Below, one piece after another: positions 9,932 through 49,890 of a stretch of DNA of 64,000 nt (position 1 is the first letter of the stretch; every line of letters starts with the position of its first letter). The translations under genes and the position numbers were made by a program. Source of the stretch: an uncultured Candidatus Saccharibacteria bacterium (GTDB lineage: Bacteria; Patescibacteriota; Dojkabacteria; J137); contig CAZUKH010000001.1 of the NCBI GenBank assembly GCA_964620955.1, positions 124,593-188,592 on the forward strand. The letters run 5' to 3'. The notes under the pieces were generated by a model. That model searched no databases. It saw only the letters and a list, made by a program, of their open reading frames with translations, and was not told where the DNA came from.

Positions 9932-11482
9932 ATGAATAGTAAAAATCTGGGTGATTTATCTAAAATTGTTGTTGCTCAAATAAAATCCAAGCGTAAACAC
10001 GAAAATGCCGATAGGCTGAATATAGTTGAAATTGACGCCGGGCAGTCAAACGACTCTGCTTTGCTTAATGAAAATGGGTTTATTCAAGTAGTAACAGCAG
10101 CCAACAACTTTGAGGTTAATGATCTTGTTGCATGGGCAGCTCCAGGTTGCTCTGTGCCAGGGTGGGTAGCAAAAGGAGACAATATAGTTTTAGAATCAAG
10201 AGATATGCGTGGACAAATATCACATGGGATGATATTAGCTGAAGATGAACTGGGAATAGGTAAAGATCACGAAGGTATATTTGTAATTGATAAAAAACAC
10301 ACTAATCTTATTGGAAGTTCTGTTTCTAAAGTGCAAAGTTTGCTAAGCAAACCTAACGACCAAGACATATTACAAGATCTTAAAAAAGTTACTACCGAGA
10401 TACTTGGTGCCGAAGATCTTTTGCAGCTATTGTCAACTGAATCAAAACTTAATCATTATATTGGGTTTGAAATTTCTGGTCTTGTTCATCTTGGGCAAGG
10501 ACTAATGAGTGGAATTGTAATAAGAGAGCTTCAAAAACTTGGGATTAATACAAGAATTTTCCTTGCAGACTGGCACACCTGGATTAACAATAAGCTTAAA
10601 GGAGATATGGAATTTATTCAAAAAGTTGCTTCAGAATATTTTATACCTGCAATGAAATCCGCAATAAGCATCGCAGGAGGAAATGCAGATGCTGTCGAAT
10701 TTATATTGGGTTCCAACCTGTACCATAATAATGATAAATACTGGCAAACAGTTGTAGATATAAGCAAAAATCTCACGCTTTCACGTGTACTAAAATCTAC
10801 AACCATTTTGGGACGGGAGAGTTCACAAAGTATGGAGTTTGCAATGTTAATTTACCCTTCGATGCAAGCGGCAGATATTTTTGAAATGCAAAACCATATT
10901 GCGCACGCGGGTACCGACCAAAGAAATGTACATGTCATTGCAAGAGAAGTAGCCTCGAAAATAACTGTTCAAAAACTTATGGTTAATAACAATTCTATAA
11001 AGCCTATTTCTATACATCACGAACTAGTACCAGGGTTACAAAAGCCCTCAGAATGGCCATTGCCAAAGAATATTTCAAAACATGACATGCTTACAAGTCT
11101 TAAGATGAGTAAATCTATACCCGACTCGGCAATATTTATTCAAGATGATGTGGAAGAAATTAAAAGAAAAATTAACCAGGCATTTTGTCCTGAAAAAGAA
11201 ATCGGTTACAACCCAGTTCTTTCATGGGTCAGACTTCTCATTTTCCCAATAAATAATAAATTTGAACTTAAAAGAGAAGCTCGATATGGGGGAGATAGAA
11301 TTTACAAGAATTATAGCGAGCTTGAATCTGACTATGCTAATGGTACTGTGTTCCCACTTGATTTAAAAAATAATGTGGCAGAAACACTGATTAAAATGCT
11401 ACAACCTGCACGTGATGTTTTTAATAGTGCAGAAAAGAAAATGATTATTCAGGAAATTTTAGCAGTAAGGAAAACCCGTTAA
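9932..11482 (+). CDS. Class I aminoacyl-tRNA synthetase of the Tyr/Trp subfamily (likely archaeal/eukaryotic-type tyrosyl-tRNA synthetase) with an N-terminal Myf/Trbp111-type tRNA-binding OB domain
   Basis: N-terminal ~130 aa: KIVVAQIKSKRKHENADRLNIVEIDAGQ...GMILAEDELGIG (tRNA-binding domain). Then GFEISGLVHLGQG (HIGH-equivalent, G-F/Y-E-P-S-G pattern), YPSMQAADI and KMSKS. Confidence 0.7.
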   Translation: MNSKNLGDLSKIVVAQIKSKRKHENADRLNIVEIDAGQSNDSALLNENGFIQVVTAANNFEVNDLVAWAAPGCSVPGWVAKGDNIVLESRDMRGQISHGMILAEDELGIGKDHEGIFVIDKKHTNLIGSSVSKVQSLLSKPNDQDILQDLKKVTTEILGAEDLLQLLSTESKLNHYIGFEISGLVHLGQGLMSGIVIRELQKLGINTRIFLADWHTWINNKLKGDMEFIQKVASEYFIPAMKSAISIAGGNADAVEFILGSNLYHNNDKYWQTVVDISKNLTLSRVLKSTTILGRESSQSMEFAMLIYPSMQAADIFEMQNHIAHAGTDQRNVHVIAREVASKITVQKLMVNNNSIKPISIHHELVPGLQKPSEWPLPKNISKHDMLTSLKMSKSIPDSAIFIQDDVEEIKRKINQAFCPEKEIGYNPVLSWVRLLIFPINNKFELKREARYGGDRIYKNYSELESDYANGTVFPLDLKNNVAETLIKMLQPARDVFNSAEKKMIIQEILAVRKTR

Positions 11483-12140: not shown

Positions 12141-12728
12141 ATGAAGTTCAACAAAGTAATTATGCTTTTAACAACCTCAGATATTTTTACCTGGGGCTTA
12201 ATGACTGTTGTACTAAGCATTATTGGTATTTATATTTCACTTAAGCTTAATGGCGATGCAGTTGAAATTGTGGGTATTGGAACTGGAATTTATAGCCTTG
12301 CCAGGGGCCTTTTTCAAATACCTATGGGACTTCTTGTGGATAGAACAAAAAGTGACAAAGATGACATACTTATACTTTTTTTGGGTAGTGTTTGTATGGG
12401 ATTTCCTTTTTTACTTTTTAATCTTATTGAGGAGGAGGTGGCTTACTACTTTTTACAATTTGTAATAGGGTTTGGAAGCTCTATGAATATTGTTACCTGG
12501 AGAAAGCTTTTTGCAAGTAATTTAGACAAAAATCACGAAGGTCTTGAGTATGGCATTTACGATACTGTTATGAGTATTGCTATTGCGGTATTTAGCGTAA
12601 TTGCGGGAGTAGTTGCTAGTTTGAGCGAAGAGTCCTTTGATTTTGTAATTGCAATGATAGGGATACTTATGATTTCCAGCGGAGTTTGGCCATTATTAAT
12701 ATTCAAAATTAAACGCAAAAAACTGTGA
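12141..12728 (+). CDS. Hypothetical membrane protein
   Basis: 195 aa with about 5 hydrophobic helices. Confidence 0.5.
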   Translation: MKFNKVIMLLTTSDIFTWGLMTVVLSIIGIYISLKLNGDAVEIVGIGTGIYSLARGLFQIPMGLLVDRTKSDKDDILILFLGSVCMGFPFLLFNLIEEEVAYYFLQFVIGFGSSMNIVTWRKLFASNLDKNHEGLEYGIYDTVMSIAIAVFSVIAGVVASLSEESFDFVIAMIGILMISSGVWPLLIFKIKRKKL

Positions 12729-13090
12729 CTGAAAAAAATAGACAGCTTTTTTACTTGGCAGGTGGAATTTTAGCTATTCTTGCTTTTGTATTCTTTGGCA
12801 TTGGAATGAGCAATACCAATACACCTACTTTTATTGTCTCTGAGGACATGGCCCTTGATTACCTTTATGAGACGTTTCCTGAGAAACGAAAATCTGAAAC
12901 CCAACAAAAGGTTTTTATTGAAAAAGTAAGTAGCTCCTACTTTATAGCTTTAGCAATGATTGAAGAAAACAGCATTTTATTCGCTGAATGTTTTGAAGTA
13001 GGAGAAAATACAAGTATATCTAGTATTCCTTACAAGGCTAATTCTGCTTACGTCACAAAAGTTGATCCTGTTAGCTGCACAGGCCTTTAG
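12725..13090 (+). CDS. Hypothetical membrane-anchored protein
   Basis: 121 aa. N-terminal TM. 4-nt overlap with the upstream ORF. Confidence 0.45.
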   Translation: MTEKNRQLFYLAGGILAILAFVFFGIGMSNTNTPTFIVSEDMALDYLYETFPEKRKSETQQKVFIEKVSSSYFIALAMIEENSILFAECFEVGENTSISSIPYKANSAYVTKVDPVSCTGL

Positions 13091-13106
13091 TGCGGTATAA
13101 TTACCA

Positions 13107-14168
13107 ATGCAAATTCTAGGTGTATCGACAAAAGATCAAGAAGAAGCGGTAAATATTTTAGCTAAAGGAGGTCTTGTTATTTACCCAACTGAAACTGCAT
13201 ACGGCGCAGGTGTTGATGCTACAAATAAATTAGCAGTGGGTAAACTCCTCGAGTTTAAAAAACGCCCTACTGGTAAAGCAATATCAATTGCTTGTAGCTC
13301 ATATAGCATGGCCCAAAGTTATGTAATAATAAATAAAGCAGCTGACAATTTGTATAAAGAATTTCTTCCGGGGCCTCTTACTATTGTATCTTTTTCTAAA
13401 AATAAAGTAGATAAACGTCTTGAGTCTGAGGATAGCACTTTGGGTGTAAGAATCCCGAATAATGAATTTGCGCTAGGAATGATTGAGAAACTTAAAAGGC
13501 CCGTTACTGCTACATCTGCAAACTCTTTCGGTAACGCCACTCCTTACTCAATAGAATCCATACTTGAAAATTTAACTGAAAAACAAAAGTCTATTGTAGA
13601 TTTAATAATTGATGCGGGGCATCTTCCAAAAAGGTTGACTTCAACAGTTGTTGATACAACAAGAAATACATTAAGAACTTTTCGCAAAGGAGCTATTAAG
13701 TTTGGATCTAATAAACCTCAAAAAGTAATTGTTAGTAAAAATGTTGAAGAAACACTAAACCTAGCCGAAATACTCACCAAAAACTTACTAAGCGATGGTT
13801 TTAATAACATTGTTTATCTATTATCTGGGGAGCTAGGTGCGGGCAAAACACATTTTGCGAAAGGGGTGGCAAAAGCCTTAGGGGTAAACGCAGTAGTTAA
13901 ATCTCCTACTTATGGATATGTGTCTGAATATAAAATACCTTATTCAACTCAAAAGTTTATACATGTTGACGCCTGGAAAATCGTTAATAAAAGAGAACTC
14001 GAAGCGCTAGGCCTTAATAATTTGATTAAAACTTCAAAGGTTGTGGTTATCGAATGGCCTGAAGTAATTGAAAATCTTGATAAAGACTTTTTTAATAAGT
14101 TTAAACCAATTGCAGTGTATATTGACTCGATTGATGAGCAAACAAGAAAAATGAGTATTTTCCAATAA
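13107..14168 (+). CDS. Fusion protein: L-threonylcarbamoyladenylate synthase TsaC/YrdC domain + tRNA t6A biosynthesis ATPase TsaE (YjeE) domain
   Basis: N-terminal: LAKGGLVIYPTETAYGAGVDATN...LLEFKKRP (YrdC/Sua5). C-terminal: LLSGELGAGKTHFAKGVAKALGV..KSPTYGYVSEY...HVDAWKI...IEWPE (TsaE P-loop). Confidence 0.8.
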   Translation: MQILGVSTKDQEEAVNILAKGGLVIYPTETAYGAGVDATNKLAVGKLLEFKKRPTGKAISIACSSYSMAQSYVIINKAADNLYKEFLPGPLTIVSFSKNKVDKRLESEDSTLGVRIPNNEFALGMIEKLKRPVTATSANSFGNATPYSIESILENLTEKQKSIVDLIIDAGHLPKRLTSTVVDTTRNTLRTFRKGAIKFGSNKPQKVIVSKNVEETLNLAEILTKNLLSDGFNNIVYLLSGELGAGKTHFAKGVAKALGVNAVVKSPTYGYVSEYKIPYSTQKFIHVDAWKIVNKRELEALGLNNLIKTSKVVVIEWPEVIENLDKDFFNKFKPIAVYIDSIDEQTRKMSIFQ

Positions 14169-19691: not shown

Positions 19692-22600
19692 TTGTTTTTG
19701 CGTTTTTTAAATAAAACAATACGGCTCAAAGAATGGCAGCTGGATATTTTTTCAGCTTTTGTTTTGCTGGGTGGTATTTTCGCTGGCGTAATTCTTGCTG
19801 TTGCAGGTTTAATTCCATTAATTAATGCTGATGTTACTAATTTAATTACGCTTACCTCAGATGCATCGTTTAACACTGGTAGTTATGCTAGTACAAATAT
19901 AACCGGAGCGGGAGATGGTGCCTCTGTACAGTTAACACCTGGCGGCGCTGGATGGCTTGACCCAGCATGGACTTACCGACGGGATATTACAATTAACAAC
20001 CCTAATACTTCTACTCTAACTGAGTACCAGGTACTTATTACTCTTAATACTAGTAACTTTAATTATGCAAATGTTCAAAATGATTGTGATGATATTCGTT
20101 TTGCCAATAATGCTGGCCAACTTTTAAGCCATTATCAGCTTGTGTGTAATACAAGCGGTGTAAGTCAATTTTGGGTTAAAGTAGATTCACTTGCAGCAAG
20201 TTCCGATACTACAATACAGGTTTATTTCGGCAATGCTTCCGCAACTAGCGGTTCAAACGAAGTGGCAACCTTTTCATACTCATCAGCTAAAACTGTTGGT
20301 TATATAATAAATGACAGGGTTAATGAAGCATCAGTAATCAGTCTTATTGCAAATAATCAAATTATTCATAATTCACAAACTTTTAATCTTAATGAATATG
20401 AAACTAATTACTTTCCTTTAGTTAACAGAAGTTTACCAATACAAGCTAAAGGATTATTTAATTTTAAAGATCCTGATACAGATAATGATACATTTGTACC
20501 GGTTTCATTTGCAGGTACAAACTTTAGATTTACAACAAGAGAAAGTGGAACAGATACCGAAGATTTTTGGATGATTAGTCCATGGGGTAGTGCTACAGTA
20601 ACAATAGCCGGTGATGGCGGGGCAGCATGCCAAACACTTACAGTTACAGGCACAGCTGCGGTTAACGGGTCTGGCTGTAATTTAGCAGCGGGTATTACTT
20701 TTAAAATAACCAGTACAATACCAATTCTTGTTTTTTACGACGGGAATGCTAATCAAATTTCTCCAATTATGCCAGTTGAAAATGGACCATGGTACGGAGT
20801 GCCAAGCAGGACTCTAATGATTTCAGCAGCCGATAGTGGAGCAAACACAACTTACTTTAGATCCGACAACGCAAATGCTTACAATAATGCAATTGCAGCA
20901 AACAGGGATTTAACCCAAGCTACAGCATACGCGTCTTATGCTTCGGGACCCGCACTAAAAATAACAGGAGATAACCCAATTTTTGCATCAGCATGGAACG
21001 ATGGTAACGGGAATGACGGCGTGTCATTTATGCCTTGGAATAAACTTGGCACGCGATTTGGAGGTGCAACTGTTGTTGACTATATAGCTATTGCCTCACC
21101 CTACCCTGCTACTTGCCGTGTTTACAATGCATTAACTCAAACTCTAGTCGCAAGTGGTACAGCATCATCATTAAATTCAGAAGTTTATATGCTTGGGTTT
21201 GGTACTGGAAATTCTAATACTTATGTTAACGGTCCGTGGTATGTTGATTGTGACAAGCCTGTGTACCTTTACGCTGAAATGTCTGCAGACGCAGAAACGC
21301 AAGTTTATACATATGAGCAAATGAGGCAGTTTGTTTACCCAACGCCTGCAATGAATTCAACACTTGGTAACGAAGAAGGCTCAATTCCTGGAAGCGGCAC
21401 ATGGGAATCAGCAGGAAATCAAAATGCAATAGATTTAAAGTGGAATGGAGGATGGGGAGATGGCACTGGAACATCAGTGGGTTTTGAAGCAAGTGTTTCT
21501 AATGTAGGAGCAAATGCAAATATTGCATTTCAAATTAGGGCAGCATCTAGCCTGGCCAACTTAACATCAACAAGCTATCAAACTTTAGGCGTAGCAAGTT
21601 CAGGTACCAGTTTTACAGTTACTAAAGATGAGCTTGACACTCTTGGCGTACCTACTGGTTTAAATGGTAGGTACATTCAAATTAAAGCAACACTCAACTC
21701 AATTGATGGTTTTATAAACCCAGTACTTGAAAGTTTTGGGGTAAGATACCAAGCTGATAACTCAGGTCCATCTGTAAACGCTTCGGGAATTCAGCTCTTT
21801 AAAAGTTCAACTGGCGGTGAAGTCACAACAGACAACTGGCTTAATAATATTGCTCCATACTTTTCATGGAGTGAAGGCTCAGATACACAATCTGAAATTG
21901 GTGGGTTTTGCTTGTACATAGGAAACGATATTAATGGTGACCCTGCAATTACTGAGGGTATTTTGGGTGATAGTGGTTTTAGCGTACCTGGTGCAGACTG
22001 CCCTTTTCAAATAGAAACACCTTATATTGATTTTGCTACAACTGCTTTTAGAGGAAGCCAATGGCTTGAATCTGACACAATAAAGTACTATATGAAGGTT
22101 AAGTCAATCGACCGGGCAGGGAACGAATATCTTGGAACTGCAGCTTCATTTAGCTTTTACTATGATGATACGCCACCTACAACTCCATTCTTCATTTCTT
22201 TACCTTCGGGATTTGTTTCTTCAAAAGAAGTTACTATAACCTGGCCAACAGTAGGAAACGAGCGGGCTAAAGATGACCATTCACAGCTTGCTGGCTTGCA
22301 GTACAGAATAGGAAATAATGGTGTGTGGTATGGAGATTTGCATAATGGAGCTGAAAATCAAACTGACTTATTAGTTAATGATGGACATTACGTTACAATT
22401 GACCCTTATGATTTTGATGCGCTAAGCCAAGAGGTTAACTTGATTTACTTTAGGAGTTGGGATAACGCTGGAAATATATCTACTGCAACAGTTAGCGGAA
22501 CAATAAAGATTAACTCTAATGCACCAAGTAGCCCACAAAATCTTACAGTCACGCCATTAACCAATACAGTAAACTCCTATGCTTTTGAATGGGACCCACC

Positions 22601-24392
22601 TAGTAGTTATACCGGCCTTTTGAGTGGAATTACTTATTGTTACACTGTTAACACATTACCTTCGGCAGGTACCTGTATTTTTACAGGGCCAGGTGTAACA
22701 AACCTTGCTGCAGATGCATATGCTAACCTTCCAACAACTAATACACTTTACCTAGTAGCTAAAGATGAAGCTGGAAACATTAATTACTCAACATATACCC
22801 AGGTAGATTTTACGTATACAGGAACCGCTCCTGGTATTCCGCGTAATATTGAAGTTACAGATATTTCAATAAAAGATACTGCAAACTGGAGACTTTCTGT
22901 AACTTGGGAAATTCCCGAAAATATTGGTGCTGGTGTGAGCTCATATAAAATTTATAGATCTACCCAAGACTTAAGCTGTACAAACGATATTGAATCTTTT
23001 AGCCTTATTGATACTATTAAGGGTTCTACCTTTTACGCAAATACTGGTTTAAGCCAACAAACTTACTATTACTGCCTTAGAGCTTGTGATTCGGCAAACA
23101 ACTGCTCTGCTCCTTCTGAAGTTGCATCTGGATTTCCTGACGGAAGATTTACTAGCCCAGCTGAATTAATTTCAGGGCCAACTATAACAAACCTTTCTAC
23201 TCGCAGAGCAACTATAAACTGGGTAACAGTTCGAGGTTCCGATTCAAAAGTAGCATATGGAATTGCTCCTGACACATATTTTGAAGAAGAGCCATCAACT
23301 TCTACCCAGGTAAACGACCACGTTATAAACCTTTCGGGCTTACAGCCAGGAACCACCTACTACTACAGAGCAAAATGGACCGATGAAGATGGTAATACAG
23401 GAATAAGCCCTGAAAAATCTTTTACTACAGACCCTGCTCCTGTAATTAGAGATGTTTCGGTGGCAAGAGTTGGATTAGACAATGCTGTAATTAGGTTTAC
23501 AGCAAGAGGTGCTTATGGAGTTCAGCTTCGTTATGGGCTTACCACAAGTTTTGGTGGAGCTATTGAAATTGACTCTTCACCTGTTGAAAGCACTTACACT
23601 GCAATAATCGAAAATTTGCAAGACGGCACAAATTACTTTTACACAATCAACCCTTTTGATGGTGAAGGATTTACATACGAAGGAACTGTTTTAAATTTTG
23701 CAACTCTTCCAAGACCTCAAATAACAAATGTAGATATTGAAGAACAAAAAGGAAATGCACAACCTACAATAAAAATTACCTGGGAAACAAATACCCCTAC
23801 AAACTCAATTGCTACTTACTTTCCTGTAACTAACCCTGCATTTACTCGAGATCAAGTAGATATTAATTTAAAAGATGGTAAACATGAAATGACTTTAGCC
23901 GGACTGGAAGCAGAAACAACTTACAACCTGATTGTGAAAGCAGTTGATGCTTTTGGTAACCAGGCACAATCAGATACTATTAGCTTTACAACTGCAACAG
24001 ACAGCAGACCACCAGAAATTTTTAATTTAAAAGTAGAAGGCACTATTACTAACTTTTCGGAAAGTAGCACTGGCTCCGACCAGCAAAAAGCACAACTTAT
24101 TGTTTCGTGGGATACTGATGAACCTGCAACAAGTCAAGTAGAGTTTGGACAAGGAAGTGCCTCAGTTTATACACAAAAAACACAACAAGATCAAAATCTT
24201 ACTTTCAACCATTTAGTTGTAATTTCAAACCTTACACCTTCGCAGGTTTATAGCCTTCGAGTGATTTCTGCTGATAGCGCTGGCAATGAGGGTTTGTCGG
24301 ACAATTCTGTTACTATAACTCCTAAGGTTGTAAGTTCAGCTTTAGACTTAGTGTTTTCAAATCTACTTGAAATATTTGGTTTTTTGCGATGA
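19692..24392 (+). CDS. Giant (1566 aa) membrane-anchored surface protein: N-terminal TM, DUF2341 domain, long array of Fn3-like / purple-acid-phosphatase-N-like beta-sandwich repeats
   Basis: TTG start. TM segment FSAFVLLGGIFAGVILAVAGLI. DUF2341 signatures: WxYRRDITINN...DCDDIRFANNAGQLLSHYQL...FWVKVDSL...IQVYFGN. Repeated TxxW..., GTTYYYR and YY-rich beta-sandwich motifs. Low-complexity S/T/G/N-rich linkers. Confidence 0.7.
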   Translation: MFLRFLNKTIRLKEWQLDIFSAFVLLGGIFAGVILAVAGLIPLINADVTNLITLTSDASFNTGSYASTNITGAGDGASVQLTPGGAGWLDPAWTYRRDITINNPNTSTLTEYQVLITLNTSNFNYANVQNDCDDIRFANNAGQLLSHYQLVCNTSGVSQFWVKVDSLAASSDTTIQVYFGNASATSGSNEVATFSYSSAKTVGYIINDRVNEASVISLIANNQIIHNSQTFNLNEYETNYFPLVNRSLPIQAKGLFNFKDPDTDNDTFVPVSFAGTNFRFTTRESGTDTEDFWMISPWGSATVTIAGDGGAACQTLTVTGTAAVNGSGCNLAAGITFKITSTIPILVFYDGNANQISPIMPVENGPWYGVPSRTLMISAADSGANTTYFRSDNANAYNNAIAANRDLTQATAYASYASGPALKITGDNPIFASAWNDGNGNDGVSFMPWNKLGTRFGGATVVDYIAIASPYPATCRVYNALTQTLVASGTASSLNSEVYMLGFGTGNSNTYVNGPWYVDCDKPVYLYAEMSADAETQVYTYEQMRQFVYPTPAMNSTLGNEEGSIPGSGTWESAGNQNAIDLKWNGGWGDGTGTSVGFEASVSNVGANANIAFQIRAASSLANLTSTSYQTLGVASSGTSFTVTKDELDTLGVPTGLNGRYIQIKATLNSIDGFINPVLESFGVRYQADNSGPSVNASGIQLFKSSTGGEVTTDNWLNNIAPYFSWSEGSDTQSEIGGFCLYIGNDINGDPAITEGILGDSGFSVPGADCPFQIETPYIDFATTAFRGSQWLESDTIKYYMKVKSIDRAGNEYLGTAASFSFYYDDTPPTTPFFISLPSGFVSSKEVTITWPTVGNERAKDDHSQLAGLQYRIGNNGVWYGDLHNGAENQTDLLVNDGHYVTIDPYDFDALSQEVNLIYFRSWDNAGNISTATVSGTIKINSNAPSSPQNLTVTPLTNTVNSYAFEWDPPSSYTGLLSGITYCYTVNTLPSAGTCIFTGPGVTNLAADAYANLPTTNTLYLVAKDEAGNINYSTYTQVDFTYTGTAPGIPRNIEVTDISIKDTANWRLSVTWEIPENIGAGVSSYKIYRSTQDLSCTNDIESFSLIDTIKGSTFYANTGLSQQTYYYCLRACDSANNCSAPSEVASGFPDGRFTSPAELISGPTITNLSTRRATINWVTVRGSDSKVAYGIAPDTYFEEEPSTSTQVNDHVINLSGLQPGTTYYYRAKWTDEDGNTGISPEKSFTTDPAPVIRDVSVARVGLDNAVIRFTARGAYGVQLRYGLTTSFGGAIEIDSSPVESTYTAIIENLQDGTNYFYTINPFDGEGFTYEGTVLNFATLPRPQITNVDIEEQKGNAQPTIKITWETNTPTNSIATYFPVTNPAFTRDQVDINLKDGKHEMTLAGLEAETTYNLIVKAVDAFGNQAQSDTISFTTATDSRPPEIFNLKVEGTITNFSESSTGSDQQKAQLIVSWDTDEPATSQVEFGQGSASVYTQKTQQDQNLTFNHLVVISNLTPSQVYSLRVISADSAGNEGLSDNSVTITPKVVSSALDLVFSNLLEIFGFLR

Positions 24393-48603: not shown

Positions 48604-49890
48604 CTACTTTTTAAACACTCCCACAATCCATTTATGACTTTTTTGAGTGTGGTTTAGTTTTACAAGCTTAAATCCAGCTTTTTCTGCTCTACCTACGAGC
48701 TCATCTGCTGTAAAGAAATGATAAAACCGCTCAAGCTCTCCGTAGCTTTTCTGTTCTTTTTCAACAATTTCTCCTTCTCCTTCTCTCACGATTATGTAAA
48801 AGATACCACCATCTACTAATGCTTCATATGTTTTTTTAAAAAGCTCATCTTGATATTTACCCTCAACATGGTGAAAAGAATCTCGTGCCCATATGCCTTT
48901 AAACTTCTCTTTACCAAATGGTTGCTTGACCATATCGGCATGGATTATTTGAGTGTTAGGATTTTCAAATTGTGCAATTTGTGCAAACCTTTTAGATATC
49001 TCGATTCCAGTTACAGAATACTTCTCAGACAAAAAAGCAACATCAAGACCAGGCCCGCAGCCCAAATCTAATACTTTAGCTGGTGGGTTAATCATTTTTG
49101 CAAACTCTTCTAACTGCCCTCTTGAAGGCAATAGTCTGAACTTTTTTGAGTGATAGCTTTGGGCATGTGCATCATAGCTTGTTTTCGTTTTATTGGTGCG
49201 TTCTGACAATAAAAATGCAGCTTCATCTCCATTTGTTGATTTAAGTTGGGATCTATCTAATGTGAGCTCGTGATGTTCAAGAATAGTCATGATGTCTCTT
49301 GGTGTTTCAGCAAAATACAGTACCCCAAACTCTTTTTCGTCTATAAGCATATATTTTTGCATAGAAGATACTAGCTCTTTCCAAAAGTTACCAAACAGTA
49401 TTACTGGCTTATGTGCGCCGTAATATAATTTGGCCAAGGCCCAAACTAAGCCGAATTCTGAGATTGTCCCTGTACCTCCTTTACATACAACGTAGGCATC
49501 TCCCTTTTCAATAAGCCCAAATGTTCTGTTTATGTAATTTGACTGTGCATCTGTTTCATCTGCTATGTTTGCAAGATTTTTTCCTTCAAATACTGTTGCA
49601 AGTTTTGGTTCCCAATAAACTACTGCGGTTTTACCATTTACTGATTCTGCTCCGTCTGTTGCTGCTTTCATAAGCCCAGGCCCACCCCCATTAACAATGG
49701 TATAACCATTTTGTGCCAGTAGTTTTGCTGATTCGTAAACTATTTTATAAATTTCATTTTCTGCAGAAATTGCTGAATCACCAAAAAATGTAATGTTATT
49801 TATAAGCCTTTTTGGCTTGTGGCTAATTCCTTTATTAGACTTGAGTTTAATGGTTTTTGGCTTTAACGGCAGCTTTATATTTGTTGGCAT
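48604..49890 (-). CDS. Fusion: LOG-family (TIGR00730, cytokinin riboside 5'-monophosphate phosphoribohydrolase-like) Rossmann domain + class I SAM-dependent methyltransferase
   Basis: N-terminal: IVNGGGPGLMKAATDGA...CKGGTGTISEF (LOG motifs GGGxGLM / PGGxGT). C-terminal: VLDLGCGPGLDVAFL ... IIHADM (SAM-binding motifs I and post-I). Confidence 0.65.
   Translation of the reverse strand: MPTNIKLPLKPKTIKLKSNKGISHKPKRLINNITFFGDSAISAENEIYKIVYESAKLLAQNGYTIVNGGGPGLMKAATDGAESVNGKTAVVYWEPKLATVFEGKNLANIADETDAQSNYINRTFGLIEKGDAYVVCKGGTGTISEFGLVWALAKLYYGAHKPVILFGNFWKELVSSMQKYMLIDEKEFGVLYFAETPRDIMTILEHHELTLDRSQLKSTNGDEAAFLLSERTNKTKTSYDAHAQSYHSKKFRLLPSRGQLEEFAKMINPPAKVLDLGCGPGLDVAFLSEKYSVTGIEISKRFAQIAQFENPNTQIIHADMVKQPFGKEKFKGIWARDSFHHVEGKYQDELFKKTYEALVDGGIFYIIVREGEGEIVEKEQKSYGELERFYHFFTADELVGRAEKAGFKLVKLNHTQKSHKWIVGVFKK

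Follow-up and report, generated by a model that had tools for sequence, protein, structure and literature searches.

In the bacterial pathway for the threonylcarbamoyl modification of adenosine 37 of tRNA (t6A37), TsaC produces threonylcarbamoyl-AMP (TC-AMP), a very unstable intermediate, and TsaD moves the threonylcarbamoyl group onto A37. The ATPase TsaE sits at the entrance of the TsaD active site, touching TsaB as well as TsaD and keeping tRNA out; its hydrolysis of ATP is needed for multiple turnovers (PMC6009658, PMC6614819). In the bacteria studied, this hydrolysis resets TsaD for a further round. TsaE has been proposed to open the TsaB-TsaD complex (TsaBD) to take TC-AMP from TsaC, the four-protein complex being only transient (Missoury et al., 2018; PMC6009658). 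The current view is that TsaC works close to TsaD in space, thereby overcoming diffusion of the intermediate (Jin et al., 2023; PMC10484737). Here we describe a gene, tsaC::tsaE, that encodes TsaC and TsaE as a single polypeptide, whereas the two are separate proteins in the canonical machinery (TsaC or TsaC2 plus TsaB-TsaD-TsaE) of E. coli and T. maritima. The gene lies on the forward strand of a 64-kb stretch (the window) of contig CAZUKH010000001.1, from an uncultured bacterium placed by GTDB in the Dojkabacteria. It has in common with the canonical machinery the same two protein families, their catalytic motifs and the presumed chemistry, and in most relatives it adjoins tsaD.

Genes for t6A synthesis fuse repeatedly in reduced or Gram-positive genomes, as in TsaC/HemK of Mycoplasma genitalium, yeaZ::rimI::ygjD and alr::yjeE. 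The Pandoravirus protein TsaN (TsaD-TsaC-SUA5-TcdA) is likewise a natural multi-domain t6A fusion containing TsaC, but it has no TsaE and no channel, and acts on nucleotides, not tRNA (PMC10484737), whereas the fusion described here has TsaE. The archaeal Kae1-Bud32 proteins (MJ1130, HVO_1895) provide another parallel, as a lineage-wide fusion of a regulatory ATPase/kinase-like subunit that has been taken as evidence of functional coupling. There, however, Bud32 is fused to the transferase Kae1, here TsaE to the TC-AMP synthase, and Bud32 and TsaE have unrelated folds. None of these fusions, nor hydrolase::yeaZ, TobZ or HypF, joins TsaC to TsaE, and the combination is absent from the fusions given in four earlier papers (PMC4615747, PMC3571937, PMC9654439, PMC10321239). 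We found no account of a TsaC-TsaE fusion, and no t6A study specific to the Candidate Phyla Radiation (CPR), in the open-access literature. Databases name these proteins only as 'L-threonylcarbamoyladenylate synthase', and once as 'TsaE'. Precomputed database annotation shows the architecture, but no analysis of it is to be found in the searchable literature. It is a new domain architecture of a known pathway, not a new kind of biology. Given the single-function names, pathway reconstructions of these genomes may wrongly score TsaE or TsaC as missing.

The gene and the features of its product are as follows (window coordinates; aa, amino acid positions in the protein):

13107..14168, + strand: complete tsaC::tsaE fusion gene, a single open reading frame (ORF) with ATG start, 353 codons plus stop, with Pfam and NCBIfam matches to both families
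13107..13691, + strand: predicted TsaC-type threonylcarbamoyl-AMP synthase domain, aa 1-195 (Pfam match aa 17-195; PF01300, TIGR00057, and the YrdC/Sua5 fold by Foldseek)
13257..13265, + strand: K51-K52-R53, the 'KxR' half of the KRSN catalytic tetrad as read from the sequence; among 88 homologs K51 is invariant and R53 conserved to 90% or more
13515..13523, + strand: S137-A138-N139, the 'SxN' half of the KRSN tetrad as read from the sequence; at least 90% conserved in the alignments
13692..13721, + strand: inter-domain tether, about aa 196-205; sequence-variable, with poorly conserved columns and low AlphaFold2 confidence nearby
13722..14165, + strand: predicted TsaE ATPase domain, aa 206-353 (Pfam match aa 211-341; PF02367, TIGR00150)
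13827..13850, + strand: Walker A motif (P-loop) G241-E-L-G-A-G-K-T248; G244, G246, K247 and T248 invariant in 88 homologs; in 130 of 132 fusion representatives
13902..13913, + strand: S266-P-T-Y269, the TsaE 'SPT(F/Y)' switch I; S266 and P267 invariant; in 129 of 132 representatives
13962..13976, + strand: H286-V-D288-A-W290, counterpart of the TsaE 'HxDxYR' motif; H286, D288 and W290 invariant
14052..14057, + strand: E316-W317, the TsaE 'EW' motif; invariant in 88 homologs

The reading frame is unbroken, with no stop or frame break in the ORF list or in the DNA read directly. Scored against curated family cut-offs (the gathering score for Pfam), the product matches Sua5_yciO_yrdC (PF01300) over aa 17-195 with 152.2 bits (cut-off 25.1, E 1.4e-44) and TsaE (PF02367) over aa 211-341 with 96.6 bits (cut-off 26.6, E 1.4e-27). 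The NCBIfam models for L-threonylcarbamoyladenylate synthase (TIGR00057) and TsaE (TIGR00150) give 163.4 bits (cut-off 123.2) and 80.9 bits (cut-off 60.1), respectively. Such scores put the resemblance of both halves far beyond chance, while AAA, KAP, Zeta-toxin and similar P-loop models in Pfam all remain under their own cut-offs on this protein. An earlier, sequence-only reading of the stretch had assigned the N-terminal half to YrdC/Sua5 and the C-terminal half to the TsaE/YjeE P-loop proteins, and had pointed to a Pfam scan for both; the scan agrees with both assignments. The motifs quoted in that reading are present at aa 244-248 (GAGKT), 266-272 (SPTYGYV) and 315-319 (IEWPE). Of the two weak points that it named, a break between the halves is absent, the architecture recurring in more than 130 divergent clusters, and no other P-loop family claims the C-terminal half. 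The domain models, catalytic motifs, predicted fold, conservation and, in relatives, the downstream tsaD together make it close to certain that the gene is predicted correctly as one for a bifunctional TsaC-TsaE protein of the t6A37 pathway; the product bears every hallmark by which TsaC and TsaE are each recognized at the level of sequence and fold.

Residue conservation was judged on alignments of 26 and 88 family members. The nearest solved relatives of the N-terminal half are T. maritima TsaC2 (TmTsaC2; 9d3h), MTH1692 and P. abyssi Sua5 (PaSua5), all of which carry K-K-R/S-A-N type residues like those of the window protein when residues are aligned. Foldseek returns 1hru, 1k7j, 6f87 and 9d3h for this half, with template-modelling scores normalized by target (TM-target) of about 0.8 for the single-domain entries. 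The half is best described as a putative single-domain TsaC-type enzyme, predicted to synthesize TC-AMP from threonine, bicarbonate and ATP. The order of a TsaC domain followed by an alpha/beta domain of about 130-150 aa is also that of Sua5/TsaC2, and the N-terminal half is closest to the catalytic domains of TmTsaC2 and PaSua5. In Sua5/TsaC2, however, the second domain is SUA5 (PF03481) and is preceded by a conserved linker motif, whereas here it is TsaE (PF02367) after a short variable tether. Membership in Sua5/TsaC2 was rejected: PF03481 has no match at E<=1, the C-terminal half is TsaE, and the linker, compared with that of a 374-aa Sua5 from another locus (L043), has no Sua5-type motif.

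It could be argued that the N-terminal half is YciO-like with some other RNA-related role, or that the TsaE half is a degenerate lid that replaces the SUA5 domain, whose place it does occupy. E. coli YciO indeed scores higher against the N-terminal half than E. coli TsaC (85 versus 53 bits). Either version is nevertheless very improbable. The KRSN tetrad, which the non-orthologous paralog YciO lacks (Thiaville et al.; PMC4615747), is intact here; E. coli YciO reads R-Q-L and S-L-M at the tetrad positions, differing at R53 and N139. The best matches, TmTsaC2, MTH1692 and PaSua5, are genuine TC-AMP synthases, the SUA5 domain and Sua5 linker motif are both missing, and all ATPase motifs of the TsaE half are invariant. 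The half is moreover fused to TsaE and adjoins tsaD in relatives, whereas yciO genes cluster with rnm (PMC12506659). Membership in YciO was rejected on the tetrad and on the neighbors in relatives, which are t6A genes and not rnm.

The C-terminal half aligns motif by motif with HI0065/YjeE, B. subtilis YdiB and T. maritima TsaE. Its SPTY is matched by SPTY or SPTF in the solved TsaE proteins, its H-V-D-A-W by HFDLY or HMDVY, and its EW by the IEW of HI0065 and YdiB. The sole systematic departure from classical TsaE is the tryptophan in place of tyrosine in HxDxYR, with K or R next to it. Structural matches found with Foldseek (5np9, 1htw, 6n9a_E and 6s84) have TM-target values of 0.69-0.78 and root mean square deviations of 2.2-3.2 A. 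These comparisons point to a TsaE ATPase that is predicted to be active.

The fusion is widespread among relatives. A search of a 5.8-billion-protein collection gave 3133 homologs, and the best 120, examined for architecture, all carry both PF01300 and PF02367; they are 45-56% identical to the window protein and mostly 350-380 aa long, and every source-named homolog among them is from Candidatus Dojkabacteria. An exhaustive HMMER search of 1.84 billion representatives clustered at 50% identity found 213 proteins at E<=1e-30. The best 150 of these comprise 132 TsaC-TsaE proteins (a lower bound for the fusion as a whole), three with the order reversed (TsaE-TsaC), and 15 with TsaC alone; the forward fusions reach down to about 31% identity to the window protein. 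The phylogenetic distribution, which the sequence-only reading had singled out for checking, is therefore that of at least 132 clusters at 50% identity, with Dojkabacteria as the source of all named proteins among the 120 best homologs, and the forward fusion is conserved across a lineage centered on Dojkabacteria/WS6. Such recurrence bears on the reading that two genes were wrongly joined by an insertion or deletion in a metagenome-assembled contig. The exact protein is found on one contig only, and one relative (L046) has a homolog split between frames. The unbroken architecture, however, is seen in more than 130 divergent clusters assembled independently (NCBI, JGI, ENA, Logan), and the alignment crosses the junction without a change of frame; the artefact reading is effectively refuted.

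Two loci deserve separate mention. In L046 (10001-10910) the TsaE part of the split homolog is a separate 161-aa ORF, followed by tsaD; the split may be due to a frameshift or a sequencing error, or the gene may be a pseudogene. A GTDB species-representative contig labelled uncultured Candidatus Saccharibacteria bacterium (L003; CAYTHH010000004.1) encodes a forward fusion that shares 44% identity with the window protein. If the Saccharibacteria label is not wrong, the fusion is not confined to Dojkabacteria.

The genomic context of relatives was examined in 80 metagenomic loci from an alignment query and several more from exact look-up. tsaD lies directly downstream of the fusion in about 27 of the 34 relatives with enough downstream sequence. 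In L084, L085, L089 and L090 the fusion gene and tsaD share 4-8 nucleotides (nt), an overlap that suggests translational coupling. The adjoining TsaD proteins score 356 and 338 bits, above the NCBI TsaD equivalog cut-off of 296. Six contigs appear to be common to the match lists of the fusion and of TsaD, including a named Dojkabacteria contig, and one TsaD match is from candidate division WS6 bacterium OLB20. When ORFs within 3 kb of the fusion/tsaD pair were clustered, no gene besides tsaD was found to accompany the fusion consistently. In the window itself, neither tsaD nor tsaB was detected in tblastn searches with E. coli TsaD and TsaB, with hidden Markov models (HMMs) of TsaB and of a truncated TsaB (mini-TsaB, see below), or in Pfam scans of 40 window ORFs, as the sequence-only reading had already remarked. 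In the window and its nearest relatives tsaD would have to lie elsewhere.

The three proteins of reverse order (P0380, P0396 and P0398; 335-340 aa) score above the NCBIfam cut-offs in both halves. One of them, P0396 (L086 10001-11008), is encoded in a locus syntenic with two others (L087 and L088) in which tsaE (143 aa) and tsaC (192 aa) are unfused, with an overlap of 4 nt; the reverse fusion would thus be that gene pair joined. These proteins share no more than 31% (TsaC) and 38% (TsaE) identity with the corresponding halves of the window protein, which indicates, as judged from sequence, that TsaC and TsaE have been fused twice independently, in opposite orders and in two lineages. A further arrangement is seen in L043 (1878-4353), on a low-GC contig that is probably not CPR, where miaA, sua5 (374 aa), tsaE (146 aa), tsaB (254 aa) and valS follow each other unfused. 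This order, with tsaE directly after the TC-AMP synthase gene, is one from which the forward fusion could arise.

These arrangements may be read in two ways. Fusion could be a neutral by-product of genome compaction, a stop codon having been lost between adjacent or overlapping genes, which would bring co-expression and fixed stoichiometry at most, and no kinetic hand-off. The separate but overlapping tsaE and tsaC of L087 and L088, simply joined in L086, are what such a process would leave, and so are the unfused neighbors sua5-tsaE-tsaB in the unrelated L043. On the other hand, the forward fusion has been maintained in 132 or more clusters formed at 50% identity, some of them only about 31% identical to the window protein, and a second fusion arose in the opposite order. 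tsaC and tsaE are also found together in both lineages, although tsaC is mostly not clustered with t6A genes in bacteria (PMC3571937). A neutral origin is the main rival of the reading that we prefer, a hand-off of TC-AMP between tethered domains, and ranks below it as a real but lesser possibility; a property of the tether counts in its favor, as described next.

The AlphaFold2 model, built from the 88-sequence alignment, has a mean predicted local distance difference test score (pLDDT) of 91.7 and a predicted template-modelling score (pTM) of 0.58. Both domains exceed 90, and the pLDDT drops to 52-73 over aa ~181-200. High confidence in the domains, low confidence in the linker and the pTM value indicate two well-folded domains joined by a flexible tether of about 10-20 residues, with no predicted fixed interface. 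The lack of an interface is what would be expected of a neutral fusion. It also sets the protein apart from TobZ and HypF, in which an adenylate-forming YrdC-like module is similarly linked covalently to a carbamoyl-transfer machine, an arrangement that deals with the lability of the adenylate intermediate. There, however, the synthase is fused to the transferase and a closed tunnel connects their two sites, whereas here its partner is a regulatory ATPase and the model predicts no rigid interface (pTM 0.58). Membership in the TobZ/HypF type was rejected, as the fusion has no PF00814/Kae1-like domain and reaches 15.8 bits with the HypF model, whose cut-off is 466. The flexible tether favors proximity over a sealed tunnel of that type.

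The reading that we regard as somewhat the most probable is a bifunctional t6A protein in which tethered TC-AMP synthase hands its product to TsaD when the TsaE domain docks. The TsaE domain would dock at the mouth of the TsaD active site and hold the tethered synthase within a few nanometres of the empty TsaD pocket, so that TC-AMP would be made and handed over locally during the reset or loading step. The fusion would set the ratio of TsaC to TsaE at 1:1, and in most relatives it would be co-translated with TsaD from an overlapping two-gene operon. Under the model of Missoury et al., a covalent link between TsaC and TsaE should be an advantage. The hand-off is supported by the occurrence of the fusion twice in opposite orders, by the adjacency of tsaC and tsaE in both lineages and by the usual coupling of the forward fusion with tsaD. 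The sequence-only reading had held that the fusion implies channeling or a reduced pathway. Of this, a hand-off by proximity is plausible and fits the published model, but the predicted flexible tether argues against a fixed channel, and as regards TsaD the pathway is unreduced, the protein being present in the lineage.

Several points weigh against the hand-off. Where genomes are compact and genes overlap, as in CPR bacteria, fusions can appear and be retained even if they confer no selective advantage. The model predicts no fixed interface between the domains, and hence gives no evidence of a tunnel like that of TobZ or HypF. tsaD is not adjacent to the fusion in the window, nor in its closest relatives (L001/L002, L005, L006 and L091). 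A TobZ-like placement would set TsaC on the face of TsaD opposite to TsaE (Missoury et al.; PMC6009658), a face that a short tether starting from TsaE might fail to reach. Finally, for every family member the activity of the two halves, the docking on TsaD and the hand-off are inferred from sequence and model.

TsaB, an integral part of the canonical machinery, has not been found beside any forward fusion. About 10 kb on each side of every locus was searched with an HMM from 19 TsaB sequences, an HMM from 23 mini-TsaB sequences, precomputed Pfam matches and tblastn with E. coli TsaB. Neither a full nor a mini-TsaB was detected in about 45 forward-fusion loci or in the window, the only signals being weak cross-hits on the N-terminal domain of TsaD; L019 and L039 have further genes between the fusion and tsaD, and on inspection these are not TsaB. 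The sister lineage with the reverse arrangement, by contrast, has a short gene immediately after tsaE-tsaC:

L086 11005-11310, strand not given: mini-TsaB gene
L087 10001-10312, strand not given: mini-TsaB gene
L088 5698-6009, strand not given: mini-TsaB gene

The products, of 101-103 aa, match PF00814 and positions 3-88 of the 212-position model TIGR03725, with 52-61 bits against a cut-off of 69.3, a shortfall that is due to the truncation. They carry the hallmark GPGSFTG(L/V)(K/R)(I/V)G, and look like TsaB reduced to its N-terminal subdomain. The family comprises 23 clusters (P0403-P0425), nearly all of 101-107 aa, and the search for it returned the sister lineage only. A truncated TsaB of this type is not mentioned in the t6A literature consulted for the fusion.

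The absence of TsaB from these loci raises the question of whether the forward-fusion lineage has lost TsaB and retains a t6A system of two polypeptides, TsaC-TsaE and TsaD, in which the TsaE domain acts on a Qri7-like TsaD homodimer. Besides the negative searches, the status of tsaD as the sole consistent companion of the fusion and the shrinkage of TsaB to about 103 aa in a related lineage are in line with this proposal. TsaB is, however, often unlinked to tsaD in bacteria, and the searches span only about 10 kb per side of each locus. The solved complexes show TsaE touching both TsaB and TsaD (PMC6009658), and a bacterium with TsaE but without TsaB is unreported (PMC4615747); the cases described are some symbionts, in which TsaE can be lost, and two Mycoplasma species that have neither TsaB nor TsaE (Thiaville et al.; PMC4615747). 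We consider the two-polypeptide system unlikely. If TsaB were absent, the system would be a new minimal bacterial one, intermediate between TsaBDE and the Qri7-only system of mitochondria, and the mini-TsaB of about 103 aa would be a snapshot of TsaB on its way out.

The bifunctional reading touches on two open questions of the pathway: how TC-AMP passes from TsaC to TsaD when no stable TsaC-TsaBDE complex has been isolated, and at which step the TsaE ATPase acts. As 'Rosetta-stone' evidence, the fusion suggests that TC-AMP synthesis and TsaE docking share one step of the cycle, as Missoury et al. proposed. It may also serve as a practical reagent, since with TsaC and TsaE in one chain it should be possible to trap a TsaC-TsaE-TsaD complex for structural studies.

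In the window, the fusion gene is flanked by unrelated genes. Upstream are a fasciclin-domain protein, a half-length member of the major facilitator superfamily (MFS) and a 121-aa hypothetical protein whose gene ends 16 nt before the fusion; downstream are DUF1761 and aldehyde dehydrogenase genes. The half-length MFS_1 gene (12141-12728, + strand; 195 aa) overlaps by 4 nt the 121-aa ORF (12725-13090, + strand), which has no family match. Synteny of this upstream MFS gene with the full-length MFS gene of L084 was considered and rejected, the proteins not being similar. A perfect TATAAT at 13096-13101, a site not called by the promoter scan, stops 5 nt short of the start codon of the fusion, and no obvious Shine-Dalgarno sequence was seen in the 16-nt gap. 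The gene may be leaderless or co-transcribed with the genes upstream. A scan for sigma-70 promoters and terminators around the gene found fewer promoter-like sites than in shuffled sequence, none of them usable.

The window has a GC content of about 35%, and its gene set (TrxB, IF-2, FtsW, ManC, TrmB, HisRS, Rpe and a SLOG-methyltransferase) matches that of the fusion loci L001 and L091, which points to a low-GC host of the Dojkabacteria/WS6 kind. The SLOG-methyltransferase is a 427-aa protein (48604-49890, - strand; also L091 4664-5962) in which a SLOG/LDcluster4 (Lysine_decarbox-like) domain is joined to a class I S-adenosylmethionine-dependent methyltransferase domain, and it is conserved beside ribulose-phosphate 3-epimerase in a related 1.11-Mb genome. 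At 9932-11482 (+ strand) lies a gene for a Trp/Tyr-type class I aminoacyl-tRNA synthetase (tRNA-synt_1b) of 516 aa that carries an N-terminal tRNA_bind domain (PF01588). The N-terminal position of the appended domain appears unusual. A gene at 19692-24392 (+ strand), where the local GC content is slightly higher (0.39), encodes 1566 aa with DUF2341, a purple-acid-phosphatase N-terminal domain and fibronectin type III repeats; the product is probably a large surface protein.

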